A stretch of 64,000 nucleotides of DNA from Candidatus Bipolaricaulota bacterium (GTDB lineage Bacteria > Bipolaricaulota > Bipolaricaulia > UBA7950 > UBA9294). Positions 3,360-22,061 of the stretch are shown here, piece after piece. A program made the position numbers and the translations under genes. Position 1 is the stretch's first letter. Each line of letters starts with the position of its first letter. The notes under the pieces are model-generated. The model worked only from the letters and a program-made list of their open reading frames with translations, made no database searches and was not told the DNA's origin. The stretch covers positions 115,794 through 179,793 of the forward strand of contig JBFMGK010000003.1 of NCBI GenBank assembly GCA_040752575.1, written 5' to 3'.

Positions 3360-3412
3360 CTCCGCTCTCGTCCATCGTCGGGGAGCGAGGTGCGTTCACG
3401 GCCTGCGAAGCG

Positions 3413-3622
3413 CTAGAGATAGTCGTCGTCCTCTTCGTCGTCGAGGTCCTCATCGTCGTCGAAGTCGTCTTCCTCTTCGATCCACTCGAGCCTCACCGGG
3501 TCCTCTTCGACGACCTCGAGCAACGCCTCGCACTCCTCGCAGCGCAGGCGGTTGAAGAGCGACAGTTCCTCCTTGTCGACGTCGAAGGCCGCGTCGCACA
3601 CCGGACAGACGATCTTGCTCAC
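3413..3622 (-). CDS. LysW/ArgW-like zinc-ribbon protein with an acidic tail, lacking C-terminal EDWGE
   Basis: GTG start after AAGGAGG. Sequence MSKIVCPVCDAAFDV...CEECEALLEVVEEDPVRLEWIEEEDDFDDDEDLDDEEDDDYL. Confidence 0.75.
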   Translation of the reverse strand: MSKIVCPVCDAAFDVDKEELSLFNRLRCEECEALLEVVEEDPVRLEWIEEEDDFDDDEDLDDEEDDDYL

Positions 3623-3891
3623 AGTGCCCTCCTTGACTTCGGCATCGTACGGCAACGGGCGCTTCGCAGCGCGCCCGGATCGCCTTCCCTGCGCTGCCGG
3701 CAGTCCCGAATCCCCGCTCGACTTACGGCTCTTCACGCGCCTCTCCCGCTCTTTCCGATCCTTCGCCTCACCGGCGGCCTGTCCCGAAAGAAAAGCGTAG
3801 AGCCAATGGCATGTTCAGGCCGCAGGATAGCCAGGCTTCCCAGGGGGCGTCAATAGCGCGTTGGGGTCCCTTGGTCCGCCGGCGACCGGGG

Positions 3892-5283
3892 TCATGTGTC
3901 CACGTCCGATCTTTCGGACCTCGGCGAAACCCCGCCCAGGACGTCCACGACGAGTCCCGACAGGAGACTCACGGCACCGCCGAGGACACGCTCGTCGAAG
4001 TCGAACGTCGACGTGTGGGCCGCCAGGACGCGCGAACGGTCGGCATCATCGCGATGAACGCCGGTCAGGTCCGCGCCGAGTCCTACGTAGGCTGCCATCC
4101 CGCCTCGCTCCTGTACGTGCAGCATCATCTCGGTGAAGTCTTCGCTTCCCCCCACGGCATCGACGGCGAAGCAGTGGAAGTCCCCGACTGCCGAGGCGAC
4201 GTGCTCGATCCGGCGCGCGAGGTCGGGGTCGCTTCGCGCCGTCCCTGCCTCCCCCATGGGGCGAACCTCGACGGTGCAGCCATACATGGATGCGGCGGCC
4301 GTCACGACGGCAAGGGCTCGCTCGGCCATGAAGGCACAGAGCTCCATCGTCTCGCCGCGCACCTCCGCCACCAACAACGCTTGCTCCGGGATGACGTTCC
4401 GGCCGCTGCCTGCGGTGAGCCGGCCGACGTGAACGCGTGTGAACCCCGCGTGATGCCGTGGCAGGGCGTGGAGGTGAACGGCGGCCGTTGCCGCGGCAAG
4501 CAGGGCGTTCCTGCCTCCCTCCGGCATGCCGCCAGCGTGGGCCGCCTCGCCACGGAAGAGGACATCGAGCTTGCGCGTTGCCGCATACCCGCCGAGGCCG
4601 GGAGCGAGTTCCCCGAGGGCCCAGCCCGTGAGCACGTGGCAACCCACAACGATGTCCACGTCGTCGAGATGCCCGGCTTCGACGATCGAACGCGCACCCC
4701 GCACGCCTTCTTCGGCCGGCTGGAAGATCAGCTTCAGCGTGCCCTGCAGTGAATGTTTGGAGCGGGCGAGGGCGTGAGCCACCCCGAGGCCGATCGCCAC
4801 GTGCCCGTCGTGGCCGCATGCGTGGCAGATTCCTTTGTGAACGGATGCGAATCCCTCACGGAGCGGACGATGCGTCGCTGCTTCGCTCTCCATCAGATCG
4901 AGCGCGTCCATGTCAAAACGGAGAGCGACGACGGGTCCACGGCCCCAGCGCCTCAACGCCACTGCGCCCGTCATGCCTCCCCGCATCGTCTCCAGAAGGT
5001 CGCCGTCTACCCCTTCGGCGCGGGCGCGGGACCATGCGGCGTCCAACGCCTCTGGATCCGGGACGCCCCTACGCGACGCGGCTTGACACACATCGGCGCC
5101 CAAGAGAGGCGAGTACCCCAAGGCGCGCAGGCGCTCGACCACGATCGCCGTCGTGCGGAACTCTGTCCAGCCCGTCTCCGGGTGACGATGGAGATCGCGG
5201 CGATCGGCGATGAGAGAGGCCTCTGTCCAGTCACGCTCCAGCGGCTCCTGCGATCCGCGTATCACGCCGCGCAAGCCGGGCAC
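3892..5283 (-). CDS. M20D amidohydrolase, AbgA (p-aminobenzoyl-glutamate hydrolase A)-like
   Basis: RRDLHRHPE, RFDMDAL, HACGHDGH, FQPAEEG and GGSEDF motifs. Exact start uncertain. Confidence 0.9.
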   Translation of the reverse strand: MPGLRGVIRGSQEPLERDWTEASLIADRRDLHRHPETGWTEFRTTAIVVERLRALGYSPLLGADVCQAASRRGVPDPEALDAAWSRARAEGVDGDLLETMRGGMTGAVALRRWGRGPVVALRFDMDALDLMESEAATHRPLREGFASVHKGICHACGHDGHVAIGLGVAHALARSKHSLQGTLKLIFQPAEEGVRGARSIVEAGHLDDVDIVVGCHVLTGWALGELAPGLGGYAATRKLDVLFRGEAAHAGGMPEGGRNALLAAATAAVHLHALPRHHAGFTRVHVGRLTAGSGRNVIPEQALLVAEVRGETMELCAFMAERALAVVTAAASMYGCTVEVRPMGEAGTARSDPDLARRIEHVASAVGDFHCFAVDAVGGSEDFTEMMLHVQERGGMAAYVGLGADLTGVHRDDADRSRVLAAHTSTFDFDERVLGGAVSLLSGLVVDVLGGVSPRSERSDVDT

Positions 5284-5301: not shown

Positions 5302-6411
5302 TCAGAACTCAAGGGTGAACGCTCCGTTCTCGTAGATCTTCTGGTCGTCAACTCGGATCACGCCGCCGTCTCGCAGATCGCACACGAGATCCCAGTGAAT
5401 GGCCGACTCGTTCCGGCTTCCCGTCTCGGGCATCCCCGCGCCGAGCGCCATGTGGAAGCTCCCGGCGATCTTCTCGTCGAACAGGGTGTTTCCTGTGGCT
5501 CTCTGGATTCCCTCGTTAGTGCCGATCGCAAACTCCCCAACGCGGCGGGCCCCCGGGTCCACGTCGAGGGTTCGCTGAAGGAAGTCGTCGCCCTTCTCCG
5601 CATGAGCCTTCACCGCGACTCCCTGCTCAAACCAGATCTCAACGCCCTCAAGGCGGCGTCCGTCATAGACCGTGGGGTAGGAGAAGCGCACGTGTCCCCG
5701 AACGGAGTCCTCGACCGGGCCGGTGAAGACCTCTCCGTCGGGCATGTTCCGCTTCCCGTCGCAGTTCACGAACGTGCGACCCGCGATGCTCATCTCGAGG
5801 TCAACGCCGGGAGCCTGCACACGCAGCGCATGCTTTCCCTTAAGCCAGTTGACGAGCCTCTCCTGCCACGCGGACAGGGTCTGCCAGTGGCGCACCGGAT
5901 CGGTGAGGTCGGGGAGGCAGGCTCGGAAGACGAAGTCCTCGTACTCGGCGAGACCCATCTCGGCGTCCTGGGCGTAGGCGGGTGTGGGATAGAGGCAGCC
6001 GACCCAACGCAGATCGCCCGACGCGGCACGGCCCATAAACGTCTTGAAAAGGTCTCGCGACGCCTCCTTCGAGGCGACGAGTCTGGCGGGATCGACGTTG
6101 GTCAGTTCTTTCGTGTTTGAGGATCCGGACAGCGATAGGATCACGTCGTACGTCTCGTAGACAAGACGAGTCGGCGGGGCGACGTGCCGCAGTTGTTCGT
6201 CGGAGGCATGCCGGAAGAACAGCTCGTCCATGCCGGGGAGTTGGGCGCGCAGGAAGGGAAGCCCGCCTGCATCGAGCACCTCGACGAGGACAGCCTTCAA
6301 CAGCGGTTCAGCGAGCGCGCTTCCTTGAACGTATACCTTGTCCCCCGGGCTTACCGACGTGGAGTACCGAACGAGAACCTCGGCCAGCTTTGCCACGCGT
6401 GGATCCGTCAT
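5302..6411 (-). CDS. Aminopeptidase, M29 family (AmpS/AmpT-like)
   Basis: Start MTDPRVAKLAEVLVRYS after an SD. NMPDGEVFTGP, GEFAIGTN, LFDEKI..SFHMALG and SAIHWDLV motifs. Confidence 0.93.
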   Translation of the reverse strand: MTDPRVAKLAEVLVRYSTSVSPGDKVYVQGSALAEPLLKAVLVEVLDAGGLPFLRAQLPGMDELFFRHASDEQLRHVAPPTRLVYETYDVILSLSGSSNTKELTNVDPARLVASKEASRDLFKTFMGRAASGDLRWVGCLYPTPAYAQDAEMGLAEYEDFVFRACLPDLTDPVRHWQTLSAWQERLVNWLKGKHALRVQAPGVDLEMSIAGRTFVNCDGKRNMPDGEVFTGPVEDSVRGHVRFSYPTVYDGRRLEGVEIWFEQGVAVKAHAEKGDDFLQRTLDVDPGARRVGEFAIGTNEGIQRATGNTLFDEKIAGSFHMALGAGMPETGSRNESAIHWDLVCDLRDGGVIRVDDQKIYENGAFTLEF

Positions 6412-6481
6412 GCCGCCTCCTTGGGGCCCCAGATTCTGCCCGAGTCCGACGATAGCGGCCGCTCCGAGGTTGGGCAAGGGA

Positions 6482-7249
6482 CTAGACGGGAAGCAGCTCG
6501 AGATCACGCGCTGTGTTGACGGGCCGCCCGGGAGACAAGACGGCCACTCGGCGCAGGCCTCCGTAAGCCGATGACGTGAACACCGTCAGACAGCGATCCC
6601 CGAACAGGTACGTCGGCGCGTCAGGTTGGTGCGAGCGCACGAGGACCCGAACACCGAGGGTCGCCGAGCGAATACGAAACTCCTCGGGTCCCAATTGGGG
6701 GCGCCCGGTGACGTAGGGAAGCTCCTCCCCCGGTTGGCGCCAGTCTCCCCAGACGACGTCTCGCCACGCGGACTCGCCCGGCGCGAGAGACGCGATGGTG
6801 TCGAGTGTTGGACTGTCCGGGAGGGCTCCGTGAACAGCGAGGACCCGCGCGGGGTGCCACGCCGCCAGCGGAAGTCCGAGAAGGAGATCGGCCAGTTCGG
6901 CGGCGACATGCGGTTCGAGCGACTCCCAGAAGTCGGCGATGCGAAAGCGCACAGCACCGTAGGCTTCGTGGTTTCCGCACAGGAGAAAGGTCGACGCCGG
7001 CCTCGCGATCTTCTGCGCGAGGACACGCTCGAGCGTCGATGCCGACGCGGGTCCGCGGTCAACGGTATCTCCGAGGAAGACCACCACATGCTCAGGGTCC
7101 CCGAACTCCCGGATGACCGTTTCGACCGCTTCGAGATCCCCGTGAGTGTCTCCGACATAGACGATCCGGCGGTCTTCCGGGAGGCGGATTACCCGTTCCT
7201 CTTTGCGAATCACGGCCATGGCGCGGCGAGCCGTCTCGATCAGCGACAC
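6482..7249 (-). CDS. Ser/Thr protein phosphatase, PPP family metallophosphoesterase
   Basis: GDTHG, GDTVDRG, GNHE, VHG, RSHQ and TVFTSSAY motifs. Confidence 0.88.
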   Translation of the reverse strand: MSLIETARRAMAVIRKEERVIRLPEDRRIVYVGDTHGDLEAVETVIREFGDPEHVVVFLGDTVDRGPASASTLERVLAQKIARPASTFLLCGNHEAYGAVRFRIADFWESLEPHVAAELADLLLGLPLAAWHPARVLAVHGALPDSPTLDTIASLAPGESAWRDVVWGDWRQPGEELPYVTGRPQLGPEEFRIRSATLGVRVLVRSHQPDAPTYLFGDRCLTVFTSSAYGGLRRVAVLSPGRPVNTARDLELLPV

Positions 7250-7340
7250 GAAAACCTCCTATGGGCCGCCGGGGCCTGGAGCGCCCCGCTCGCGCTCTCG
7301 CGCAGGTTGCCTCATGGTAACGCAGAGCGGCGATGATCTG

Positions 7341-7369
7341 TTGACATCACGCGCGGCTCGTGGTACGGT
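7341..7369 (+). promoter_or_regulatory. Sigma70-type promoter
   Basis: TTGACA-17 nt-TACGGT with a TG extension. Confidence 0.6.
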
Positions 7370-7377
7370 TCCGCGTC

Positions 7378-7464
7378 ATGAATGCGAGCTTGGCTTTCCA
7401 GGCGAATTGGGATACGGCAGCTTCTCGGGCTGCCGTATCGGTTGCGTTCACGACGACGAGATAG
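7378..7464 (+). CDS. Candidate 28-aa leader peptide (MNASLAFQANWDTAASRAAVSVAFTTTR)
   Basis: ATG lies 8 nt after the -10 box. The ORF is followed directly by a hairpin and a terminator-like structure. Confidence 0.35.
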   Translation: MNASLAFQANWDTAASRAAVSVAFTTTR

Positions 7465-7505
7465 CCCGTCCGTTTCGCGGACTGCGAGATCGGACGGGCG
7501 TGGAG

Positions 7506-7539
7506 GACCGCAGGCGACAGCCTGGGGTCTTTTCTCTTT
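7506..7539 (+). terminator. Rho-independent terminator or attenuator
   Basis: GACCGCAGGC-GACA-GCCTGGGGTC stem (one mismatch) followed by TTTTCTCTTT. Confidence 0.6.
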
Positions 7540-7573
7540 ACCCAGGACGCCGGAGTGGCGGAAGGAGGTTGAG

Positions 7574-7861
7574 ATGGTCGGGAAGAGACGAGCCGAGATG
7601 GGTTTGCATGAGGTGGCCGAGACCACGCGATCGCCGGCGGCCATCGTCGACCTCATACGATTGAGTTACGTTCATCGGCTTCACGCGGCGTTGCGCGGGT
7701 CGCCGGACATGGCGCGCGTCCTGTCCGCCGTACACCGAGCCCTCGATGCGTGGCCGGATGCGAAGGGAATAGGAGTGGACGACGCTCAGGCGTGGGTTCG
7801 CGCGGCGCTGGCCGATGTCGTTTCGCGTACCGCGGCGATGACTCCACCGCGTTGCGGCTGA
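7574..7861 (+). CDS. Small hypothetical protein (95 aa)
   Basis: Strong SD AAGGAGGT before ATG 7574; lies in frame of ORF 7382..7861. Confidence 0.55.
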   Translation: MVGKRRAEMGLHEVAETTRSPAAIVDLIRLSYVHRLHAALRGSPDMARVLSAVHRALDAWPDAKGIGVDDAQAWVRAALADVVSRTAAMTPPRCG

Positions 7862-8367: not shown

Positions 8368-11300
8368 CTACTCGGCGTCGTCGCTAGCTGGAGCCCCCTT
8401 GGCCATAAACCTTGCGGCGACGACTCCACGGCTCGGCACGGGGATCCGCGTCCCGGGTGTCCATGCGGCTCCCGTTTCTGTGGGCACGACGAACAACAGC
8501 GCGGTTCCCTGCGAAACGCCGCGCCGTTCAAGCAACGCGAGGCCAACTTGCGCGTCGGCGAGACTCACGGAACTGGTTACACGACCGAGGATGAGTCCGT
8601 TCTTGTCGAGAACGGCAGCTCCAGCGCGAACCGGCCGCTCCCCGCGTTCAACCGTGAAGCGGACAAGCTCTCGCCGAAGCGACGAGGCTCGCGCCACGGC
8701 AGCCGAGCGTCCGATGAAGAAGGGCTTGTGCAGTTTCACGTAGGACCCGAACCCGGCCTCGAAGGGGTCGATGCCCAGAGGCCCCTCGAGTTCGTGGCCG
8801 TACAACGGGAGGCCGGCCTCGGTGCGCGTTGAGTCTCGGGCCGCCAGCCCGCATGGACGCACACCCAGCGCTTGTCCGGCTTCCAGCAGCGCGTTCCAGA
8901 GCCAGAGGGCCGTTGGCGCGGCGGCAAAGATCTCGTAGCCTACAGGCTCTCCTGTGTATCCTGTTCGCGCGACGAGAATCTGGCGCCCCTCCAAGGCCAG
9001 CTCCACGAACTGCGTCCGCTCGAGAGCTGCGACCCTCCGTGCGTCGGCGGGAGAGAGCACGCTGGACAAGGCTCGGGTGCTCTGGGGACCTTGTAGGGCA
9101 AGGTCGATGACGCCGCGTTCCTCCTTGAGGTCCCGCAGCGCGACGCCACCGCGACCGAGACAACATGCGGCACGCGAGCGGTCGACGATCCACCGATCCT
9201 CAAGCAGCCCGCGGAGCCATGCCCAGTCCTTTGCCTCGTTCGCGGCATTAACGACGACCAGGTAACGATCCTCCGCGCGTCGGTAGACCATGATGTCGTC
9301 GAGGACCTTCCCGTCGGCGTCGAAGAGGTAGGCATACTGGGAGCCGCCGTCCCCCAGCCAGCCGGCGTAGTTCGACGTGGCCTCGTTCAGAAACTGGGTC
9401 GCTCGCTTCCCTTCCACTTGGAAGACGCCCATGTGCCCCAGATCGAACAGCCCGGCGCTGCGACGCACCGCGTTGTGCTCCTCGAGCGCTGAGGTGTACC
9501 ACACCGGCATCTGCCACCCCGCAAAGGGGACGAGCTTCGCCCCGAGGGCCACGTGGACTTCATGCAGAGGCGTCGTCCGGCCCCGCACCTCTTCCGCCTC
9601 CACCCAGACGAACTCCTCGCGCGAGGGTCCCGAGGCCGACGTAACAGCGTCCCCTCCGCCGACGAAGTAGGGTTTGCCGAGGACGAAGCGCTCCGGGTGG
9701 AGCGATGCGAGTTCGCGCACCGAACGCCGGATTTCCCGCTCATCGAGCGGTTCGCAAGCCCACGTCGAAGCCGTCTTCGGGAGAGACGCCACCTCCACGT
9801 CCTCGATCACGGCCGGGCCCTCGACTTTGCGGAAGAGGTCCTCGCGGTCGAAGAGCGTGTAGCCGTCGGAGAGGCCGACGAGCCATGCCTTGATCGTCTG
9901 CACTTGGCTTGGCGGCACGAGGACCGCGTACTCGTCTCTTCCCAGACAGCCGACGAGGGCGGGGGAAATCGCCAGTCCCTTCTCGTCAAAGAAGTAGGTC
10001 GAGCAACACGCGCCGGGACTCAACCCAGCGACATCTCCCGGCGCGGCCTGGTCGAGAAGAGAGGACGCGCGACCGCCGCGAACACGAAAGGCGGCGCATG
10101 TGCCGCCAGGCCGCCGTTCAACGTCCGGACGGACGCCGGCCCGAGGCTCGACCCGTGCGATCAGCGAGGCGACATCACGCTTCGCAGACTCCAGGGCGTG
10201 AAGGGCGATCTTGCCCCGCGGAAGCTCTCCGCGAAGGCCGATGTACGAGAAGGGGCGGATTTCACGGAGCACCGAGGCGATGATCCCGGCGAGCGCCTCC
10301 ATCTCCTGTTTCCCCATGCCGCGTTGCGTCACCCAGGGCGTCCCGAACCGAAGCCCGTGTGCATGAGCGGCGCTCTGATCTCCCGGCAGCGTGTTCTTGT
10401 TGCAGACGATGCCCGCTAGATCGAGGATCCTTGAGGCGGCTTCGCCGAGCAAGGCGAAGCCGGTCTCGCTCGGAAGAAGCCTAAGATCGGCCAACAGGAC
10501 GTGCGTGTTGGTTCCCCCGTATGCGAGAGGAATGCCGTTCGCTTCGAGCGCGTGGGCCAGATGAGCTGCGTTCTCGACGATCCGCCTCTGGAGGGCTGCG
10601 TACTCCGGGGTGCGCGCGAGTTGGAGCGCCACGGCCAGCGCCGCGAACTTGTCTACGTGGGGGCCCCCCTGCAAACCCGGGAAGACCGCGGCGTCCAGCC
10701 GCGCTGCGATCTCCGCGTCGGTCGACAAGAGAACGGCGCCGCGAGCGCCACACAGTGTCTTGTGGGTGGTGAACGAGACGACGTGCGCATGGCCGATCGG
10801 ATTGGGGTAGACCTTCCCGAGGATCAGGCCGGCCGTGTGGGCGACGTCGGCGAGAAGGATGGCCCCCACGTCGTCGGCGATCCTACGGAAGGCCGCCCAA
10901 TCCGGCTGCCACGGGTAGGACGTGAAACCGCCAATGATCATCTTGGGACGATGCTCGCGGGCCAGCGCGCGCATTCGTTCGTAGTCCAGACGGCCGGTTG
11001 CCGGATCTACCGCGTAGGGGACGATGCGGTAGCGGCGGCCGGTGACGTTGAACTGGGAGCCGTGCGTGAGATGACCGCCTTCCGTGAGGGCCATCCCCAT
11101 GACCGTCTCGCCGGGTTTCACGAACGCCTCGTAGACGGCCAGGTTGGCTGCGGCGCCCGACAACGGCTGGACATTGGCCAGAATATGCTCCGCCGGCACA
11201 TCCGGCGTGGCAAAACCCTCGGCCACGCGACGAGCGGCGAGCGACTCGACGATGTCTGCGATCTCGGTGCCCTTGTAGAACCGTCGGTCGGCGTAGCGAC

Positions 11301-11553
11301 GCGTAAGGGCCAGCTGTACGTCGACGTCCGCCAGCTCCTCTTCGGTCGCCTGCATCATGGCCTTGCGGGGATACCCCTCGGCGTAGACGCTTGTGAGGGC
11401 AGAACCGAGGACTTCGCGGACTGCCGGAGGAGTCAGGCTCTCCGAAGCGATGAGGATGATCCTCTCTCGCTGTCTTCGCTCCTCGGCGGATAGCAGGGCG
11501 ACCGTCTGCGGATCGACGTCAAGGGCTCGTAACGCAGACCAAGGCTGGCTCAT
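8368..11553 (-). CDS. glyA-gcvT: Serine hydroxymethyltransferase / glycine cleavage T-protein (GlyA-GcvT) fusion
   Basis: N half: LIASES, YAEGYP, NVQPLSG, GGHLTHG, TTHKTL (PLP Lys). C half: RTTPLH..H..LGA..VPFAGWQMPVWY, EHNAVR..AGLFDLGHMG, RTGYTGE, GLAARDSTRTEAG. One continuous 1061-aa ORF. Confidence 0.95.
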   Translation of the reverse strand: MSQPWSALRALDVDPQTVALLSAEERRQRERIILIASESLTPPAVREVLGSALTSVYAEGYPRKAMMQATEEELADVDVQLALTRRYADRRFYKGTEIADIVESLAARRVAEGFATPDVPAEHILANVQPLSGAAANLAVYEAFVKPGETVMGMALTEGGHLTHGSQFNVTGRRYRIVPYAVDPATGRLDYERMRALAREHRPKMIIGGFTSYPWQPDWAAFRRIADDVGAILLADVAHTAGLILGKVYPNPIGHAHVVSFTTHKTLCGARGAVLLSTDAEIAARLDAAVFPGLQGGPHVDKFAALAVALQLARTPEYAALQRRIVENAAHLAHALEANGIPLAYGGTNTHVLLADLRLLPSETGFALLGEAASRILDLAGIVCNKNTLPGDQSAAHAHGLRFGTPWVTQRGMGKQEMEALAGIIASVLREIRPFSYIGLRGELPRGKIALHALESAKRDVASLIARVEPRAGVRPDVERRPGGTCAAFRVRGGRASSLLDQAAPGDVAGLSPGACCSTYFFDEKGLAISPALVGCLGRDEYAVLVPPSQVQTIKAWLVGLSDGYTLFDREDLFRKVEGPAVIEDVEVASLPKTASTWACEPLDEREIRRSVRELASLHPERFVLGKPYFVGGGDAVTSASGPSREEFVWVEAEEVRGRTTPLHEVHVALGAKLVPFAGWQMPVWYTSALEEHNAVRRSAGLFDLGHMGVFQVEGKRATQFLNEATSNYAGWLGDGGSQYAYLFDADGKVLDDIMVYRRAEDRYLVVVNAANEAKDWAWLRGLLEDRWIVDRSRAACCLGRGGVALRDLKEERGVIDLALQGPQSTRALSSVLSPADARRVAALERTQFVELALEGRQILVARTGYTGEPVGYEIFAAAPTALWLWNALLEAGQALGVRPCGLAARDSTRTEAGLPLYGHELEGPLGIDPFEAGFGSYVKLHKPFFIGRSAAVARASSLRRELVRFTVERGERPVRAGAAVLDKNGLILGRVTSSVSLADAQVGLALLERRGVSQGTALLFVVPTETGAAWTPGTRIPVPSRGVVAARFMAKGAPASDDAE

Positions 11554-12683
11554 GAAGACTCCTTTGTCCAGGAGAACGCTTCCGGGTGAAGTCTACGGGG
11601 TAGCTCGCGGCCTTTCCAGCACGCTTCCGCAGCCAGGTAGAGGTCTCCCGAGACGACGCCGTGTCCACCAAGAACCATCGGGATCGAAGCTTCGCGGGCG
11701 CGTTCGCTGAACTCACGCCAGATGGGGTCTTCGACGGCATCGGTGTGGAAGGCGTCGCTTGCGAAGCGATCGGCTGGCGGAGGCTCCGCCGTCCACGCGA
11801 GCAGAGGCCGTGAATCGATCCAGGCGGCATCTGCGGCACGTTCGAGCGCACGGAAGAACGGCCCCATCCCCTCGCGCTCCAGAATCTGGCGGGTCCACGG
11901 AACATGCCCCGACGGAGCGGCACGCGATCCACGGCTCTCGGAGAGCGCGCTCGTACGACAGGCGACCTCTCGCTCGACTGCGGCCCAAGTGGCCGGACTC
12001 ATCCGGCCGACAAACGCCGTCAACGCGGAACGATCGGCGAGCCGCGCGAGGGCTGCGTCGAGAGTGGGGTGAGCGAGCGGATGGGTATCGATGAATGCGC
12101 GTAAGGCCGAACCCGCGCGGTCACTACGCGACAAGACCACAAGATCCGTCGGGGTGTCGATGTCGAACTGGGTGGCGGCGTCCCTCGGCATGGCGTAGCA
12201 CGGCACGCCCGTCTCGGAGGCCGCAAAGCCGAGGGCGTTGTCCGTCGGCACGGCGGGGAGGCTTTCCAACCAAGCCGCCGAAGAGAAGGCCGCGAAGTCA
12301 CACGAGTAGTAGTTGTTGAACAGCGCGGCGGGGGTCCTGCCTCGAGCGAATGCGACAAGGCGCTCCAGCAGGTCGACGGTCAGCAACGCGCCGCTCCCGC
12401 TTCCGAAGTAAAGCACTCCGTGAGCTGCAAGCGCTGCGGTGGACCGCTTGAGCGCTTCGCCGAAGACAAACGAGTCCCCCATGTCGCTTGGGATGATCTG
12501 CACCCCAGCGGGGACAGGGCCGGATGCAGCGGGCGTCACGATGGCGATTTCCTGAACGTCGGCCTCGCGCAGGCCCGTGATCAGATCGGAGATGCCGGCC
12601 CAGCGGCCGCCAGCGACGTAGCTCTCGAGGGGCGTCCGGCCGTGCGGAGGGTGAAAGACCAACGCAGCAACGCGGCACTTCAA
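11550..12683 (-). CDS. Hypothetical protein, CofC/NTP-transferase-like (GT-A fold)
   Basis: FDIDTPTDL motif plus GSGSGALL and NNYYSCDF. Probable TTG start near 12683; stop overlaps the glyA-gcvT ATG. Confidence 0.6.
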   Translation of the reverse strand: MKCRVAALVFHPPHGRTPLESYVAGGRWAGISDLITGLREADVQEIAIVTPAASGPVPAGVQIIPSDMGDSFVFGEALKRSTAALAAHGVLYFGSGSGALLTVDLLERLVAFARGRTPAALFNNYYSCDFAAFSSAAWLESLPAVPTDNALGFAASETGVPCYAMPRDAATQFDIDTPTDLVVLSRSDRAGSALRAFIDTHPLAHPTLDAALARLADRSALTAFVGRMSPATWAAVEREVACRTSALSESRGSRAAPSGHVPWTRQILEREGMGPFFRALERAADAAWIDSRPLLAWTAEPPPADRFASDAFHTDAVEDPIWREFSERAREASIPMVLGGHGVVSGDLYLAAEACWKGRELPRRLHPEAFSWTKESS

Positions 12684-12796
12684 GCGGTGGCTGCGCCTCG
12701 ACGGCTGTGGGAAAGACGACAAGCCTCCACGGCTCGAAGGTCGAGGCCGAGGAGGCTCTCCACGCGGTAGATGGCTATCGCGTCGCCCGTCTTCGC

Positions 12797-13480: not shown

Positions 13481-13765
13481 TCAGCCCCGTAGAACGATCT
13501 GATAGCGCAGCAGTTCCTCGTCGATATTCAGCCGCCCTTCGAGCGTGCTGACCGATTCAGGGGGCATGCCGAACTCGGTGAACACGTAGAAACCATCCGT
13601 GTAGTGACGGATAGGATACGCCAGCACGCGCCTTCCCCAGTCTTCGGTCTTGGTCACGGTTCCGCCATTCTCCGCGATCAGGGTGTGCACCCGCTCGCTC
13701 TTGGCGGCACGCGCCTCATCGGTCAGATCCGGACGGACGATGAACACGATCTCGTAGTCTCGCAC
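13481..13765 (-). CDS. rpsF: 30S ribosomal protein S6
   Basis: MRDYEIVFIVRPDL...WGRRVLAYPI...GFYV. GTG start after AGAGGT. Confidence 0.96.
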   Translation of the reverse strand: MRDYEIVFIVRPDLTDEARAAKSERVHTLIAENGGTVTKTEDWGRRVLAYPIRHYTDGFYVFTEFGMPPESVSTLEGRLNIDEELLRYQIVLRG

Positions 13766-13793
13766 GCTCACACCTCTCAAATAGACTACGGAA

Positions 13794-13822
13794 AGCGTAT
13801 CCGTGCGCTCTGGGGAAGTCAA
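13794..13822 (-). promoter_or_regulatory. Promoter of rpsF-ssb-rpsR
   Basis: TTGACT-17 nt-TACGCT on the minus strand. Confidence 0.65.
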
Positions 13823-13937
13823 ACCGCATGTCTTGGCCTGCTTGCGGCGCCGTGGGTCATGACCGCCGCCTCAGCGTCAAGTCAGCGATCCCCCCGAACC
13901 GCCATCGGTTCTAATGGAACCTATGTATTATGCAAAC

Positions 13938-13966
13938 TTGATGGAAGTATGCTGGCGGGCTATTCT
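13938..13966 (+). promoter_or_regulatory. Promoter of the peptide / HD-GYP operon
   Basis: TTGATG-17 nt-TATTCT within an AT-rich patch. Confidence 0.55.
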
Positions 13967-14023
13967 ACGAGCGGTCGCCCCGCTGTGGGGCGAAGCAGGC
14001 AAGCGAAAGCCAAGGAGGCAGCC

Positions 14024-14164
14024 ATGAAGTGGGGCGGATTCAACCGCGAGGGGGAGAAGACGATGAAGAAGCTTCTGACGAGCAAGACGGTGTTCGTGTT
14101 GATGACGCTGGCTGCAGCGGCGCTGGCGATCGGCGAGACGCTCAAGTGGAGGCCCGGCGCCTAG
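14024..14164 (+). CDS. Small signal-peptide-like precursor, copy 1 (MKWGGFNREGEKTMKKLLTSKTVFVLMTLAAAALAIGETLKWRPGA)
   Basis: SD AAGGAGG at 14012-14018. Alternative in-frame start at 14063 with its own purine-rich SD. Confidence 0.85.
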   Translation: MKWGGFNREGEKTMKKLLTSKTVFVLMTLAAAALAIGETLKWRPGA

Positions 14165-14183
14165 ATCGGGGTCAGGGGGAATC

Positions 14184-14324
14184 ATGAAGTGGGGCGGATT
14201 CAGCCGAAGGGGAGAGAGGATGATGAAGAAGCTTCTGACGGGCAAGACGGTGTTCGTGTTGATGACGCTGGCTGCAGCGGCGCTGGCGATCGGCGAGACG
14301 CTCAAGTGGAGGCCCGGCGCCTAG
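14184..14324 (+). CDS. Small precursor, copy 2 (MKWGGFSRRGERMMKKLLTGKTVFVLMTLAAAALAIGETLKWRPGA)
   Basis: SD AGGGGGA upstream; same length and C-terminus as copy 1. Confidence 0.85.
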   Translation: MKWGGFSRRGERMMKKLLTGKTVFVLMTLAAAALAIGETLKWRPGA

Positions 14325-14345
14325 GCCAGGGGAACGGGGGGAGTC

Positions 14346-14486
14346 ATGAAGTGGGGAGGATTCAACCGGGAGGGAGAGAAGAAGATGAGGAAGCTCTTTG
14401 GCGCGAGAACGATGTTTGTGTTGATGACGCTGGCTGCTGCGGCGCTGGCGATTGGCGAGACGCTCAAGTGGAGGCCCGGCGCCTAG
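14346..14486 (+). CDS. Small precursor, copy 3 (MKWGGFNREGEKKMRKLFGARTMFVLMTLAAAALAIGETLKWRPGA)
   Basis: G-rich SD upstream. Only synonymous changes versus copy 1 in the last 23 codons. Confidence 0.85.
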   Translation: MKWGGFNREGEKKMRKLFGARTMFVLMTLAAAALAIGETLKWRPGA

Positions 14487-14570
14487 AGCAGACCCTAGCC
14501 TACAGCAGCATGTCCAGGTAGTATCCAGGTGGCGCGGGCATGAGGTCGCGAACGGAAGCGAGGAGGTCGC

Positions 14571-15878
14571 GTGCGGCTCCCGATTCGGGCGGCTTTGCTG
14601 GTGGGGTTGGTTGTCCTTCTGGCACTTGCTTCCCTGAGTTGGGGAATCGTCAACGTCAGCCATCCGTCGCCTGACGACCTGATCCTCTTCTTCGTCTTCG
14701 CCGTCCTTGCCATTCTTGCCGAGGTCTACGCAACCTGGATTCCGGCCTACAAGTGGGAGATCTCCAGTTCGATCGCGATCTATCTTGCCGGGCTGTTCAT
14801 CCTCGGGCCCGATCTCGTCTTGCCACTTGTCTTTGCGTCATCGGCCGTGTCCGAGCTTCTCTTGCGTTGGGGGACTCATCGCAAAGCTTTCTCCAACGCA
14901 CTCGTGCCGATCGCCTTCAACGTCTCTCAGAGTGTCGTCGCCGTTGCAGCCGCTGGCGCGCTCATGCGGGTGCTCGAGCGCGAGTCGCTGCTCATGCGGG
15001 AACCTGCGGAATTCGCTCTAGCCGTTGCCGCCTTCTTGGCTTACTTTCTCCTCAACGTCAGCCTTGTCGTCGGCATTATCTCGGTCACTCAACGGCGCCC
15101 GTTCTGGCACCTCCTCGCGGAGAACCTACACGCATTCGTCGTGCAGTACGCCGTGCTCTGCGTCTCTGCCATTCTGCTCGCCGTGCTGCGTTCGCTCTCG
15201 GTCTGGCACGTGTTTCTCGCCCTCTTCCCTCTCACGCTCGTTCACATCTCGTTTCGCAGCTACCTTAAGCTGCAAACTCAGGCGAGGAATACTTTTGAGA
15301 GGATCTCCGAGCTCTTGGACGCACGAGACCACTACACCGCCGTCCACTCCGCTGAGGTCGCTGAACTCGCGCTCGCGATTGGACGTGAGCTCGGGATGTC
15401 CGAGCGGGATCTCGAGCAGGTCGATATCGCCGCGCGCGTTCACGACATCGGCAAGGTGGCCATCCCGGATGCCATCCTTCTCAAGCCCGGTCCTCTCAAC
15501 GACGCCGAATGGGGCGTGATGAAGACGCATCCCGTGATCAGCGCGCAGCTTGTTGAGGGTCTCGAGATCTACTCGAATGTCGCCGACGCAGTCCGCCACG
15601 AACATGAGCGGTGGGACGGGAGCGGCTATCCCGATGGACTGCGGGGTGAGGCGATTCCCCTTCTGTCCCGCGTGATAGCCGCTGCGGACATCTACAACGC
15701 CCTGTCGACCGATCGCCCCTATCGCCGAGCGTTCTCGCGCGAGGACGCGATGCGCATCGTTGCCGAGATGCGCGGCGTCGACATCGATCCCCGCGTCGCG
15801 GACGCTTTGCTCGCCGTGATCTCGCGTGCGCAGACGCCCGAGACGATCGCCGCGGCTCCCGCGGATTCCGGAGCATGA
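14571..15878 (+). CDS. Membrane-bound HD-GYP phosphodiesterase with multi-TM sensor domain
   Basis: About 230 hydrophobic N-terminal residues, then DARDHYTAVHS, HDIGK, HP and RHEHERWDGSGYPDGL..EAIPLLSRVIAAADIYNAL. SD GAGGAGG. Confidence 0.93.
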   Translation: MRLPIRAALLVGLVVLLALASLSWGIVNVSHPSPDDLILFFVFAVLAILAEVYATWIPAYKWEISSSIAIYLAGLFILGPDLVLPLVFASSAVSELLLRWGTHRKAFSNALVPIAFNVSQSVVAVAAAGALMRVLERESLLMREPAEFALAVAAFLAYFLLNVSLVVGIISVTQRRPFWHLLAENLHAFVVQYAVLCVSAILLAVLRSLSVWHVFLALFPLTLVHISFRSYLKLQTQARNTFERISELLDARDHYTAVHSAEVAELALAIGRELGMSERDLEQVDIAARVHDIGKVAIPDAILLKPGPLNDAEWGVMKTHPVISAQLVEGLEIYSNVADAVRHEHERWDGSGYPDGLRGEAIPLLSRVIAAADIYNALSTDRPYRRAFSREDAMRIVAEMRGVDIDPRVADALLAVISRAQTPETIAAAPADSGA

Positions 15879-16429
15879 TCTTTCTCTATGCCATCGCAGT
15901 GGGCATCACTTTCGGGTACCTTGCCGGCGGCCGCCTTCGCGGACTGGCCCTCCTACCGCTTCGCGCGTCCTGGCTCGTCCTTGTGGCTCTGGGAATCCAG
16001 TTTCTGATCTTCCCGCTGTTCGCACCCCAGCCCTTGTTCCCGTATGCGACAACTCCGCTTCACGGTCTCTCGTATGCCTTGGCGGTGGCCTGGTTGATTG
16101 TGAATCGCCGGCAATTCCCGCTGCTCGTCGTTGGACTTGGCGCCGGGCTGAATGGGTTGGCCGTCCTTGCCAACCAAGGACACATGCCCTCGTCGCCGCA
16201 CGCGCTCGAACGCGCGGGCCTCGCCACGACGGCGCGCGTCCTGGCGGATACGGGAACGTACGGAAACCTTGTTGAGATGGGGGCTGCAACGCGCCTCAAC
16301 TGGCTGGGCGATCGATTCGCCCTGCCGAGCGGGTGGCCCTTCGCCACGGCCTTTAGCGTGGGAGACCTTCTGATCGGCGTCGGACTGGCATGGCTCATCG
16401 CGCGAGGCATGAGGCGATATGGGCGGTGA
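15875..16429 (+). CDS. DUF5317-like membrane protein
   Basis: GGRLRGLA, GAGLN..AVLANQGHMP and LNWLGDRF......FSVGDLLI motifs; ATGA overlap with the HD-GYP gene. Family assigned from recalled motifs, not from a search. Confidence 0.8.
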   Translation: MIFLYAIAVGITFGYLAGGRLRGLALLPLRASWLVLVALGIQFLIFPLFAPQPLFPYATTPLHGLSYALAVAWLIVNRRQFPLLVVGLGAGLNGLAVLANQGHMPSSPHALERAGLATTARVLADTGTYGNLVEMGAATRLNWLGDRFALPSGWPFATAFSVGDLLIGVGLAWLIARGMRRYGR

Positions 16430-18554: not shown

Positions 18555-19809
18555 CCTCGCGGATGTGCCCGACGCCGCAGATCCATGTGATGACCCGTTC
18601 AAGTCCCATGCCGAATCCAGCGTGGGGAACCGACCCGAAGCGGCGCAGATCGATATACCATTCGTACGCGGCGCGCGGGAGGCGATTCTCCTCGAGCTGC
18701 GCAATCAACTCGTCCTCGCGGTCAACGCGCTGACTGCCCCCGATGATCTCGCCGTATCCGTCCGGAGCGATGAGATCGGCAGCGAGGACGCGTGATGGGT
18801 CTGCGGGATCTCGCTTCATGTAGAACGGCTTCATTCCGACGGGGAATCGCTCCACGAACACGGGGCGCCCAAAGTGGCCGCCCAGAGTCTCCTCTTCGGG
18901 AGCCCCAAAGTCGTCGCCGAAGGTCACGGCATGTCCTCGGTCGGCCAGCAACTGGATCGCATCTCCGTAGTCGATCCGCGCAAACGGCTGACGCACCGAC
19001 GCAAGGAGCGCTTCCACGTCTCGGTCGAGCGCCGCGAGGTCCTCCGCCCGCTCGGCGACAACCGTCTCGACGAGGAAACGCACGAGGTCTTCCTGCAGGG
19101 CTAGGTTGGCTTCATGATCGGCGAAGGCCATCTCTGCTTCGGCAATCCAGAACTCCGTCACATGCTTGCGCGTCTTGGACTTCTCGGCGCGAAACGCGGG
19201 GCCGATCCAGTACACCTTTCCGAGGGCCATCGCTGTCGCTTCAAGGTACAGCTGGCCGCTCTGACTGAGATACGCCGGCTCGCCGAAGTAGTCGAGCTCG
19301 AAGAGCGTGGTCGTTCCCTCGACAGAGGCCCCGGTTAGGATGGGCGCCTCCGTGGCCACAAAGTCCCGCTGGTGAAAGAACTCGCGGAACGCCCGGAAGG
19401 CGGCGTCGCGGACGCGCAGGATGGGAACCTGTCTTCCCGTACGGATCCAGAGGTGCCGATGGTCGAGGAGGAAACCTGGCGTCTGCTCCTTGAGTTCGAT
19501 CGGGAAGTCGGCCGTTGGCTCGTGGACGACCTCCACGGACCGAAGCTGCATCTCGCAACCGCTGGGGGCGCGACGTTCCTCGCGCAGGCGTCCCGAGATG
19601 AGCAAGGACGTCTCACGAGCGAGGCGGCTGACCTTCGCAAACAGCGCCGAGTCGTCGCTCTCCGAGAGAACGGCCTGCAGAGTTCCCGTTCCATCGCGCA
19701 GCTGGAGAAACACGATCTTCCCGCTCGACCGCTTGTTGTACATCCAGCCCCGGAGCGTCACGTCTTCGCCGGCGTGGTCACGCGCTTCGGAGATCGAGAT
19801 GGTCGTCAT
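18514..19809 (-). CDS. asnS: Asparagine--tRNA ligase
   Basis: LRGW..NKRSSGKIVFLQLRDGTG, YLSQSGQLYLE, FRAEKSKTRKHVTEFW, GEIIGGSQR and PHAGFGMGLER. Confidence 0.95.
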   Translation of the reverse strand: MTTISISEARDHAGEDVTLRGWMYNKRSSGKIVFLQLRDGTGTLQAVLSESDDSALFAKVSRLARETSLLISGRLREERRAPSGCEMQLRSVEVVHEPTADFPIELKEQTPGFLLDHRHLWIRTGRQVPILRVRDAAFRAFREFFHQRDFVATEAPILTGASVEGTTTLFELDYFGEPAYLSQSGQLYLEATAMALGKVYWIGPAFRAEKSKTRKHVTEFWIAEAEMAFADHEANLALQEDLVRFLVETVVAERAEDLAALDRDVEALLASVRQPFARIDYGDAIQLLADRGHAVTFGDDFGAPEEETLGGHFGRPVFVERFPVGMKPFYMKRDPADPSRVLAADLIAPDGYGEIIGGSQRVDREDELIAQLEENRLPRAAYEWYIDLRRFGSVPHAGFGMGLERVITWICGVGHIREVIPFPRQIHRLYP

Positions 19810-19873
19810 GGTTCCTCCCTGCCGCTCGGCCGGAGAGGGTAGGAAACGCGAGGTGCGAATGCAAGCTGCATCC

Positions 19874-21277
19874 TCAGGAGATGTCCGTCGATGTGGCGGG
19901 CTCGACCTCGCGGATCACCCGTCGGGTCCAGTTTCCCGACAGGAAGAACGCGAGTGCGATGGCCGCCGTGCCGAAGTTTGATGCGAGCATGGCCCACCAG
20001 ACCGCGAACGGTCCCATGTGCAGCGCGAACTCCAGGACGTAGACCAGGGGGACTCGCAACGCCCAAAGCCGGAACAAATCGAAGAACATCGAATGTCCCG
20101 TGCGGCCTGCCCCTTGGTACACGCCCATGATGACCTGGATCACACCCATGAACGGAAACGCGAAGGCCACGAGGAGGAGCATGTCCTGCCCCACGGCGAT
20201 CACTTCGAGGTCGGACACGAAGACGCGCATGAGCGATGTGCGCAGCGCGAGGACGAACCCAGCGGCAACCACAAGGATTGCCGAAGACCATGCCATTCCC
20301 GCCCATGCCGATCGACGAGCCCGTTGGGGCTTCCCCGCTCCGAGGTTCTGTCCGACCATCGTTGCGGTGGCCTGACCGAGTCCCATGGCGGGCATCAACG
20401 CAAACGAGATGAACGCGTTCCCGATGCCGAACGCACTCAACACGACGGTGCCGATGCGCGCCAGCGCTCCGTTCATGATCGCAAAGCCTAGAGCCGTTCC
20501 CGACTGGCCGATGGACGCGAGGCCTCCGATCGATACGATGCGACGCACGAGCGGCCACCGGAGCCGGAGGTCGGTACGATGGATGTGGACGCCGACGCGA
20601 CCCGAGAAGAGAAGCGCGTAACCGACGATACACATGCTCGTGCGCGCGATGACCGTGGCCAAGGCCGCGCCGGCCACCCCCCAGCGAGGGAACGGCCCCG
20701 GGCCGAAGATCAGAAGAGGGTCTAGGGCTGCATTGAGCGCGACCGATCCTGCCATGAGCCACAGTGGAGTCACCGTGTCTCCGACGCCGTTGAGAAGAGC
20801 CGTCACGACGAACGTGCCGAACATCGCAGGCAGCCCGGCGTAGAGGATCCGCAGATAGATCGAAGCAGCGTCCGTGAGAGCCGGCTCGGCGCCCATCAAG
20901 GCCAAGAGGGGGCGCGCCGCGAAGAACCCCGCCGCAGCGAGGATCACGGACAGAAAGGCGGTGAACGCCATCGTCTGACCTGCAAAGAGGTTGGCGTCTT
21001 CGTGACGGCCAGCCCCCGTGTACTGCGCTACCAGGGCGGTTCCGGCGATCGTCATCCCCCCGCCAACCGAGAGGACAAGAAACACGAGGGGCCATGACAG
21101 AGCGAGTGCTGCGATCCCCACGGCGCTGAAGCGGGCAAGCCAGAAACGATCGGTGAAATTGTACAGGGTTTGCAGAAGGTTCGACAGCATGATCGGCCAC
21201 GCCAGGCGCAAGAGCGAAGGCGAGATGGGGCCTTCGGTGAGCCGGCGGCGCAAGGCGTCGGGAATCTCCCTGGGCAT
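19874..21277 (-). CDS. MATE family efflux transporter
   Basis: LTEGPI..LLRLAWP, AQYTGA, GDTVTP, LDPLLIFG..GVAGAALAT and GQNLGA motifs. Confidence 0.95.
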   Translation of the reverse strand: MPREIPDALRRRLTEGPISPSLLRLAWPIMLSNLLQTLYNFTDRFWLARFSAVGIAALALSWPLVFLVLSVGGGMTIAGTALVAQYTGAGRHEDANLFAGQTMAFTAFLSVILAAAGFFAARPLLALMGAEPALTDAASIYLRILYAGLPAMFGTFVVTALLNGVGDTVTPLWLMAGSVALNAALDPLLIFGPGPFPRWGVAGAALATVIARTSMCIVGYALLFSGRVGVHIHRTDLRLRWPLVRRIVSIGGLASIGQSGTALGFAIMNGALARIGTVVLSAFGIGNAFISFALMPAMGLGQATATMVGQNLGAGKPQRARRSAWAGMAWSSAILVVAAGFVLALRTSLMRVFVSDLEVIAVGQDMLLLVAFAFPFMGVIQVIMGVYQGAGRTGHSMFFDLFRLWALRVPLVYVLEFALHMGPFAVWWAMLASNFGTAAIALAFFLSGNWTRRVIREVEPATSTDIS

Positions 21278-21328
21278 GGCGCCAGTTTACCGCGGATGCC
21301 GTTCTCTCTCCGTCCGACGTGCGCTGGC

Positions 21329-21358
21329 GTTGACAAATGTCAACACATGACTTAGGCT
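21329..21358 (+). promoter_or_regulatory. Promoter with palindromic operator
   Basis: GTTGACA-AA-TGTCAAC perfect inverted repeat (21329-21344) overlapping the -35 TTGACA, with -10 TAGGCT at 17 nt spacing. Confidence 0.75.
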
Positions 21359-21368
21359 TCCCTACGCG

Positions 21369-22061
21369 ATGGAAAAGAGAACGTTCGGCGACATTCTGCG
21401 CGAGAACCGGCTGCGCAAAGGGGTCAGCCTGCGTCAGCTCGCAGGGGCCACGGGAATCGACTACAGCCGCCTCTCGAGGATGGAAACGGGAACTCGACCG
21501 GCTCCCGATCTCACGGCGCTGCGCAAGTTGGCGAGAGCGCTGGACCTTGAACTCGCGGATCTCGTCGTCTCGGCGGGGACGGCCCGGGAGATTGTCGACG
21601 ATCTTCTGTGGAACGAACGCCTCCATGTAGGCGAAGCCCTGGCCGACGTAGCGGCCTACGAGCCCGGAGCTTCCCCGCTGGCGAAGAAGAACCGCTTCCG
21701 GGTCCAGGTGACTTCACGAAACGGGGCGCGATGTGTCATCCGCCTCGGCGGCGAGTCTCTCGTTGTCTTCTCGTTTTCCCGCGCGGTGATTCTCGACGTC
21801 GAGTTGCCTCCCCAGATGGCCTGTCTGTTTCGGGACGATCCCCGAGACGCGCTCGCTACCGCGGAGAACGTAATGCAGGGGAGCGTCAGAAAGGCGAGGC
21901 GTCTTGGGCAGTTGGTCAACACCGTCCTTGAGGTTCGAGGCGCATCGATCAACTCCTTGGAGTCCGTAACGTCGTTCGACGAACGAGGGCTGACGGTTGG
22001 GGAGCCAGCGTTCGTCTGGATCCCGGCGGCGGCGATTCGGACGCAGCCGGCAATTTCATAG
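21369..22061 (+). CDS. XRE-family HTH regulator with C-terminal TOBE-like domains
   Basis: FGDILRENR.RKGVSLRQLA..TGIDYSRLSRMETG. C-terminal KNRFRVQV and ENVMQGSV....GLTVGEPAFVWIPA resemble TOBE/Mop domains. Confidence 0.8.
   Translation: MEKRTFGDILRENRLRKGVSLRQLAGATGIDYSRLSRMETGTRPAPDLTALRKLARALDLELADLVVSAGTAREIVDDLLWNERLHVGEALADVAAYEPGASPLAKKNRFRVQVTSRNGARCVIRLGGESLVVFSFSRAVILDVELPPQMACLFRDDPRDALATAENVMQGSVRKARRLGQLVNTVLEVRGASINSLESVTSFDERGLTVGEPAFVWIPAAAIRTQPAIS

Follow-up and report, generated by a model that had tools for sequence, protein, structure and literature searches.

A tandem array of mini-protein genes precedes a membrane HD-GYP gene

The 64,000-nucleotide (nt) stretch of Candidatus Bipolaricaulota bacterium DNA analysed here (assembly GCA_040752575.1, contig JBFMGK010000003.1, positions 115,794 to 179,793 of the forward strand; hereafter the window) carries three short open reading frames (ORFs) arranged head to tail on the forward strand, followed by genes for a membrane HD-GYP protein, a predicted phosphodiesterase of cyclic dimeric GMP (c-di-GMP), and for a DUF5317 membrane protein. 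Judged by sequence comparison, the short ORFs are coding, selected, lineage-wide genes with counterparts in a second phylum and are invariably linked to an HD-GYP gene; we refer to their 46-residue products as mini-proteins. The copies lie at 14024–14164, 14184–14324 and 14346–14486 on the + strand, each ORF being 141 nt long including the stop codon, with spacers of 19 and 21 nt between them, and Tandem Repeats Finder reports a single repeat array at 14023–14491 with a period of 160, 2.9 copies and 88% matches. A purine-rich Shine-Dalgarno-like stretch stands before each copy (AAGGAGG at 14012–14018 for copy 1, GGGGGA at 14175–14180 for copy 2 and GGGGGGAG at 14336–14343 for copy 3), confirming an earlier annotation made from the letters alone (the original prediction), which had described three 141-nt copies, each with its own ribosome-binding site.

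The three products share pairwise identities of 85–89%, copies 2 and 3 being 89% and 85% identical to copy 1. From codon 21 onward no nucleotide differs between copies 1 and 2. Copies 1 and 3 differ in 14 codons in total: 11 of these fall in codons 1–23, where 7 change the residue, and exactly 3 in codons 24–46, where all are synonymous (TTC/TTT, GCA/GCT and ATC/ATT), which reproduces codon by codon the original count of three silent differences in the last 23 codons. Given 18.7 synonymous sites of 69, the chance of all three changes being synonymous is about 0.02. The ORF list, generated with a default cut-off of 60 residues, contains copy 1 alone, buried as earlier noticed in a longer open frame (13604–14164). 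We rejected that 186-residue ORF as a gene: rpsF, on the opposite strand, overlaps it in its upstream part, and relatives do not conserve the frame.

The source genome (2.16 Mb in 78 contigs, with a completeness of 94.7%) holds these three copies only. The view that the array is no artefact is borne out on several counts: the copies differ from one another, an independent contig of 188 nt, from a public run on sediment, spans the junction between copies 1 and 2 (the assembled contigs of one public study cover 13803–14269 of the window), and similar arrays recur in sister genomes inside contigs of 200–300 kb. An assembly artefact is therefore very unlikely as the origin of the array and was rejected.

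Purifying selection and concerted evolution

To describe how the copies have evolved we used a codon alignment of 71 copies from related genomes, 45 of them distinct in nucleotides, and a genus-level set of 18 distinct copies, whose 142 between-genome pairs were pooled in a Nei-Gojobori calculation. The pooled ratio of nonsynonymous to synonymous divergence (dN/dS) in the genus is 0.18, with marked differences along the gene: 0.04 in the first 13 codons, 0.20 in the basic linker, 0.39 in the hydrophobic stretch and 0.10 in the last 7 codons. The N-terminal MKWGGFNREGE is the most constrained part and the C-terminal LKWRPG the next, the hydrophobic middle being the loosest and varying only within hydrophobic residues, while synonymous divergence is close to 0.5 in every part. 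Variable sites are commonest at third codon positions (22, 16 and 32 at positions 1, 2 and 3), and in two sister genomes (G007 and G001) the three paralogues encode identical proteins, all of their variable sites being synonymous (10/10 and 9/9). These results support the reading of the ORFs as translated genes under purifying selection, as first claimed, and the dN/dS values and codon-position pattern led us to reject a non-coding repeat.

Within a genome, paralogues are 83–98% identical in nucleotides, as against a mean of 78% and a maximum of 84% between genomes, and the arrays thus evolve in concert. Such near-identity among paralogues of one genome also fits the earlier proposal of dosage amplification rather than diversification. 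The accompanying picture of a variable N-terminal region and an invariant C-terminus stands for the copies within the window but fails among orthologues, in which it is the N-terminal 13 codons that are held most tightly. Because synonymous divergence between copies 1 and 3 of the window is 0.57 in the 5' half and as low as 0.16 in the 3' half, and because copies 1 and 2 share the same nucleotides over their 3' part, the invariance of the C-terminus reflects recent conversion or duplication as well as selection. Nor is the notion of a leader joined to a conserved bioactive core supported: constraint is weakest of all in the hydrophobic part of this putative core; no modifying enzyme, dedicated protease or exporter is encoded among the window neighbours within ~6 kb or in the relatives' loci; and the terminal Lys-Trp (K-W) tail hardly varies within the phylum and is found again in a second one, the opposite of species-specific peptide signals, which usually vary. 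Likewise, the one conserved and one variable part expected of a precursor of a ribosomally synthesized and post-translationally modified peptide are not seen here, both ends of the mini-protein being constrained.

Sequence features and predicted topology of the mini-protein

No Pfam or NCBIfam family matches the mini-protein, the best score of an ESM Atlas search was 0.86, below a meaningful level, and no fused or longer forms were found among 8000 candidates, which is weak evidence. In an alignment of 38 diverse family members, M1, W3 and the Lys of the terminal K-W are invariant, and K2 and the Trp of K-W nearly so, the latter being kept in at least 90% of members. All 38 have a Lys or Arg directly before the hydrophobic stretch and an uncharged core of 16–19 residues, often with a G/A-xxx-G pattern. 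The predicted layout comprises a basic N-terminus with MKWGG[FY], a helix of about 19 residues bracketed by Lys, and a tail ending in K-W-[RH]-P/G. The eight Bipolaricaulota members tabulated have a net charge of +4 to +6 in the N-terminal part and of +1 in the tail, a distribution that by the positive-inside rule points to a single-pass, N-in topology, and the mini-protein looks like a single-pass membrane protein with a cytoplasmic N-terminus and an outer tail of a few residues. A signal peptide would be expected to have a basic n-region, an h-region of 7–15 residues and small residues at -3/-1; the core has 16–19 residues here and 14 in most Bacillota forms, and a G/S column with small residues after it is present.

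Short paralogues of 31–37 residues that have no MKWGG extension have genes of their own, and in two genera the arrays alternate between short and long forms. At loci L039 (G033, 6040–7620) and L040 (G016, 6040–7060), for example, genes of 49 residues with MKWGG alternate with genes of 33 residues without it. A conserved Met14 in the window's genus is preceded by GAGGGNGAG, and internal initiation at this codon could yield the same short form. In a further locus (L042 of G013, 6110–6639), the second copy changes frame between its N- and C-terminal parts and has an altered tail (..WKCYG); this frameshift-like copy is either decaying or a short-form gene.

The HD-GYP enzyme, DUF5317 and the putative operon

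The membrane HD-GYP gene (14571–15878, + strand; 435 residues) begins 84 nt after copy 3 with a GTG start codon preceded by GAGGAGG. Its product combines a polytopic N-terminal domain with an HD_5 domain (E 1.1e-37) bearing HDIGK and HEHERWDGSGYP motifs. The signature residues H259, H291, D292, G294, K295, H345, E346, W348, G350, G352, Y353 and P354 are invariant in 34 orthologues, and with all of them kept the window protein is a predicted c-di-GMP phosphodiesterase. All 34 orthologues match HD_5 and 14 match the membrane sensor domain MASE9 (PF20972) at E<=0.01 (best E 7.3e-10); we assign the membrane domain of the window's protein to the MASE9 type by orthology only. The source genome has five HD_5 matches, seven GGDEF matches and no EAL match, so that HD-GYP enzymes are the c-di-GMP hydrolases found in it, and the array stands before only one of the five HD-GYP genes. 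The window itself also contains a weak GGDEF match (E 1.2e-6) at ~46277–46585 (+ strand), within an open frame of 547 residues.

The DUF5317 gene (15875–16429, + strand; 184 residues, PF17248 E 6.2e-28) overlaps the HD-GYP stop codon by 4 nt and is single-copy in 105 of 121 Bipolaricaulota genomes. The protein has invariant Asp/Asn/Gly motifs and a confidently folded predicted model (pLDDT 93.4) with no matching solved fold: Foldseek returned no match at E<=0.001, the best VIA-align hit (Z 6.6) covers helical hairpins only, and a comparison of its sequence profile with the PDB gave nothing below E 1.7. Two of 23 DUF5317 proteins show sub-threshold Pfam matches to signal peptidase II (best E 0.0084), which are what would suggest a signal-peptidase-II-like protease; the structural comparisons lend this no support, as no LspA appears among the Foldseek or VIA-align matches listed, and an hhalign comparison with 16 LspA proteins of the same phylum yields a probability of 1.9%. 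A complex prediction for HD-GYP, DUF5317 and mini-protein scored 0.45, with 0.00 for two controls in which a partner was replaced and 0.59 for a control in which HD-GYP was replaced, and was used neither for nor against an interaction.

Several features suggest that array and HD-GYP gene would be transcribed together, namely the lack of a terminator or notable structure in the 84-nt gap (z-score 0.56), the fixed gene order described below and a conserved promoter-like block upstream. Folding z-scores of the 5' leader, spacers and gap range from -0.7 to +2.1 and are unremarkable. The putative promoter (13938–13966, + strand) consists of TTGATG, a 17-nt spacer and TATTCT, and lies inside a block that is kept in 7 genus-level sequences of an upstream alignment of 9 genomes; a strict consensus promoter scan found none upstream of the array. 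In relatives, gene callers read the conserved block (13921–13966) as 'MYYA..' in frame with the peptide, whereas in the window it lies in a different frame and is thus non-coding. No Rfam family reached its gathering score anywhere in the window, and on neither strand of 13700–14650 did one match at E<=1, so that no riboswitch or known leader was seen there. Between rpsF (a - strand gene) and the array lies another nucleotide block conserved in the genus (~13775–13830, ..GGGTATCCGTG.. ..GAAGTCAAACC), upstream of rpsF, which may be a leader of the S6 operon and has no Rfam match.

Linkage to HD-GYP genes and distribution in the phylum

In the 20 related loci that we fetched, four of which end inside the array, an HD_5 protein is encoded directly downstream on the same strand wherever downstream DNA is available (16/16). 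A further 20 loci, chosen via DUF5317 from other families, contain a mini-protein homologue in 17 cases, and all 16 homologues that could be followed stand directly before an HD-GYP gene. The three loci without a homologue comprise two contig ends and genome G058, whose array and its HD-GYP gene share one contig while DUF5317 lies in the middle of another (358 kb). DUF5317 is likewise on another contig in G015 and G038, where the mini-protein gene is still found with the HD-GYP gene, and G051 has a second mini-protein and HD-GYP pair without DUF5317. As the pair persists where DUF5317 lies elsewhere, mini-protein and HD-GYP form the tightest unit of the module. Downstream of the HD-GYP gene, DUF5317 is the usual next gene, and the upstream neighbour varies among loci (rpsF, HU, a DHH protein or a NosD-like protein). 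In one locus (L074 of G049, 2490–5259), the mini-protein gene and DUF5317 are separated by two consecutive HD-GYP paralogues.

In other assemblies, a protein search recovered 16 related cluster representatives, each either without a name or annotated as hypothetical protein, and a profile search of 1.84 billion representative proteins gave 65 matches at E<=0.001, two of them spurious; P0020 and P0080 were dropped as repetitive long proteins. Loci L066–L069 were also discarded, the only matching part being 'EGEK.MKKLL', a ribosome-binding site read as protein together with a signal-peptide start. By profile search, the mini-protein gene is present in 85 of 121 sampled Bipolaricaulota genomes. 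Most genomes of the window's family have at least two matches, with up to six per genome, and other families have mostly one; these copy numbers are lower bounds, since many contigs end within the array or have gaps of 100 N in it. In relatives, gene callers had given the mini-proteins forms of 59–81 residues, extended upstream into non-coding DNA. The family appears undescribed in the literature, a full-text search within a limited body of publications having found none on the mini-protein/HD-GYP/DUF5317 module.

Homologues in Bacillota

DUF5317 also occurs in 72 of 201 sampled genomes of Bacillota, the phylum of a Clostridia assembly, and in the control genomes of Thermotoga maritima and Thermus thermophilus. 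We fetched 20 Bacillota loci, in 14 of which an HD-GYP orthologue lies directly upstream of DUF5317, and in 13 of these 14 an ORF of 24–32 codons ending in ..LAGGAN[FY][KR][WF]G stands directly upstream of the HD-GYP gene. No such small ORF was found in the six Bacillota loci without an upstream HD-GYP gene. An hhalign comparison of the Bipolaricaulota and Bacillota profiles returned a probability of 93% (E 3.5e-7) over 26 columns, and since the match covers helix and tail, these two parts, the latter with its K/R-aromatic pair, make up the core of the family. By this comparison, the MKWGG extension is specific to the Bipolaricaulota lineage.

Other genes of the window

The genes within ~6 kb of the array encode S6, SSB, S18, HD-GYP, DUF5317, an ADP-forming acyl-CoA synthetase-like protein, whose gene follows DUF5317, and a class II aminoacyl-tRNA synthetase of the D/K/N family. 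Further upstream, on the - strand, an ORF of 1061 residues (8368–11553) joins a serine hydroxymethyltransferase (SHMT) to a domain of the glycine-cleavage T-protein (GCV_T); ORFs of ~1050–1080 residues occupy the matching position in relatives, and the fusion looks conserved. Two more - strand ORFs, of ~380 residues (11553–12698) and 606 residues (19809–21626), have no Pfam or NCBIfam family.

A candidate in-membrane partner of the HD-GYP sensor

We propose that the mini-protein acts within the membrane on the HD-GYP sensor, as its accessory or regulator, and has been amplified for dosage in this family, a reading to which we give an even chance of being right. The three mini-protein ORFs would be the first genes of an operon that continues with the MASE9-type HD-GYP gene and DUF5317. 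Their products would stay in the membrane and pack against the membrane sensor domain of the HD-GYP protein, possibly together with DUF5317, and this packing could set or relay the input that controls c-di-GMP hydrolysis. Tandem amplification, with the copies homogenised by gene conversion and selection, would raise the dose of mini-protein relative to enzyme; the presence of three copies, each under selection, suggests that this family requires more of the product. A partner of MASE9 within the membrane fits best with the first-cistron position, the invariant interface residues, the helix-packing face and the non-diversifying tail, although we infer membrane topology, co-transcription, physical binding and an effect on enzyme activity from sequence. 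For MASE9, which has no known ligand, binding within the membrane has been suggested (bioRxiv 10.1101/2021.11.05.467447), in keeping with this proposal. Several observations weigh against this proposal. At 16 residues in this genus and 14 in most of the Bacillota forms, the hydrophobic core is short, and the small residues after it recall the cleavage region of a signal peptide, which makes cleavage possible. Furthermore, the conserved cytoplasmic MKWGG motif is missing from the short paralogues of 31–37 residues and from the Bacillota forms, the window's own HD-GYP protein has no MASE9 match at E<=0.01, and the conserved adjacency is in part inherited gene order, the genomes not being mutually independent.

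The features that allow cleavage underlie the main alternative, which is close to the original prediction and in which the 46-residue product is a pre-peptide; its hydrophobic stretch would serve for export, and signal peptidase or DUF5317 would cut it after G/S to release a K-W peptide of 6–10 residues. MASE9 would sense this secreted peptide, linking cell density to c-di-GMP, and the three copies would raise its output. Multi-copy precursor genes are indeed common for peptide signals, and the short hydrophobic core of 14–19 residues with a basic N-side, the G or S found in 33 of 38 members in the column before the tail with small residues after it, and the resemblance of the Bacillota ..LAGG-AN.. 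to a lipobox without Cys are all consistent with such processing, as are the sub-threshold signal peptidase II matches of DUF5317. A secreted signal is nevertheless rather unlikely, both as regards the release of the peptide and as regards its sensing by MASE9: known peptide pheromones diversify, unlike the K-W tail, some tails end only 1–3 residues after K-W, the strongest constraint falls on the N-terminal 13 codons, which is unexpected in a disposable leader, the neighbourhood encodes no exporter or known maturation protease, and DUF5317 shows no significant similarity to LspA. A related idea would make the mini-protein the missing input of MASE9 sensors, with DUF5317 cutting a pre-peptide at the small-residue site and either the released K-W tail or the remaining helix switching HD-GYP. 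We regard this version as improbable, and give equally little credence to its corollary of a peptide-to-c-di-GMP circuit, conserved across phyla, in which tandem amplification tunes signal strength.

It is also improbable that the mini-protein has an abundant role of its own in the membrane, such as membrane stabilisation or service as a subunit of another complex, and merely shares the promoter of the HD-GYP gene. Up to six matches per genome would indicate a high demand that is unusual for the regulator of a low-abundance sensor, and in this genus the array adjoins the highly expressed rpsF-ssb-rpsR; yet in two phyla every informative locus keeps the link to HD-GYP as the other neighbours change, and most genomes outside the window's family have a single copy. 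Cis-acting leader peptides, in which W-x-P-(G)-stop would stall ribosomes and tune expression of the downstream HD-GYP gene, are very unlikely. Pro or Gly before a stop codon slows termination, and the conserved W and P/G near the stop codon, together with the position directly upstream of HD-GYP, would suit such arrest; however, the Bacillota forms end in ..KWG, ..RFGG, ..IYW or ..FWW with no common arrest motif, selection extends over the whole hydrophobic helix and the far N-terminus, the gap before HD-GYP holds no terminator or attenuator structure, and three or more serial copies make little sense for a leader. Finally, small, hydrophobic, basic and tandemly repeated peptides recall type I toxins or membrane-damaging peptides such as those of the Ldr, Ibs and PSM-alpha operons, an explanation that we consider extremely unlikely in view of the lack of a distribution typical of stand-alone mobile elements, the single locus per genome, the fixed synteny with signalling genes, the vertical distribution across the phylum and the absence of any antisense RNA family detected with Rfam.

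Relation to known systems and implications

Small single-helix proteins that act on membrane partners are well known. MgrB and SafA are single-helix, N-in enterobacterial regulators of the sensor PhoQ with fewer than 50–65 residues, which the mini-protein resembles in size, in its one predicted helix, in its predicted N-in orientation and, by analogy, in the membrane sensor proposed as its target. There is no sequence relationship, and the mini-protein differs in that the proposed target is a c-di-GMP phosphodiesterase rather than a histidine kinase and that its gene sits in the operon of this putative target and is tandemly amplified. KdpF, CydX and AcrZ are tiny single-helix subunits whose single-copy genes lie within or next to the partner's operon and often lack annotation; size, operon position and lack of annotation are shared with the mini-protein, which is not homologous to them and is multi-copy here, and we know of no multi-copy arrays for subunits of this type. 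The precursor layout is similarly reminiscent of Phr and of the Enterococcus lipoprotein signal-peptide pheromones, whose ~40-residue precursors run from a basic N-terminus through a hydrophobic stretch and small residues to a short C-terminal piece, but the tail of the mini-protein is non-diversifying, its N-terminal extension is highly conserved, and no Rap/RNPP-type receptor or exporter accompanies it. In the Ldr, Ibs (type I toxin) and PSM-alpha operons, several near-identical short hydrophobic peptide genes likewise lie head to tail; the present array differs in that its position next to a signalling enzyme is fixed across two phyla and in that no antitoxin RNA was detected. The architecture of the downstream gene is shared with the MASE9-HD-GYP proteins T. 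maritima TM1467 and Streptomyces venezuelae HdgA as far as described in the available text of their report (bioRxiv 10.1101/2021.11.05.467447), which does not contain the term 'small protein', so that the mini-protein and the DUF5317 linkage would be additions made here.

The arrays illustrate clearly how genes evolve in concert under purifying selection and, with one to six matches per genome, offer a natural dosage series; they also show how gene callers miss or mis-extend mini-protein genes of this kind. As MASE9 is a widespread membrane sensor domain, the mini-protein would provide a testable candidate, in at least two phyla, for what talks to this sensor.

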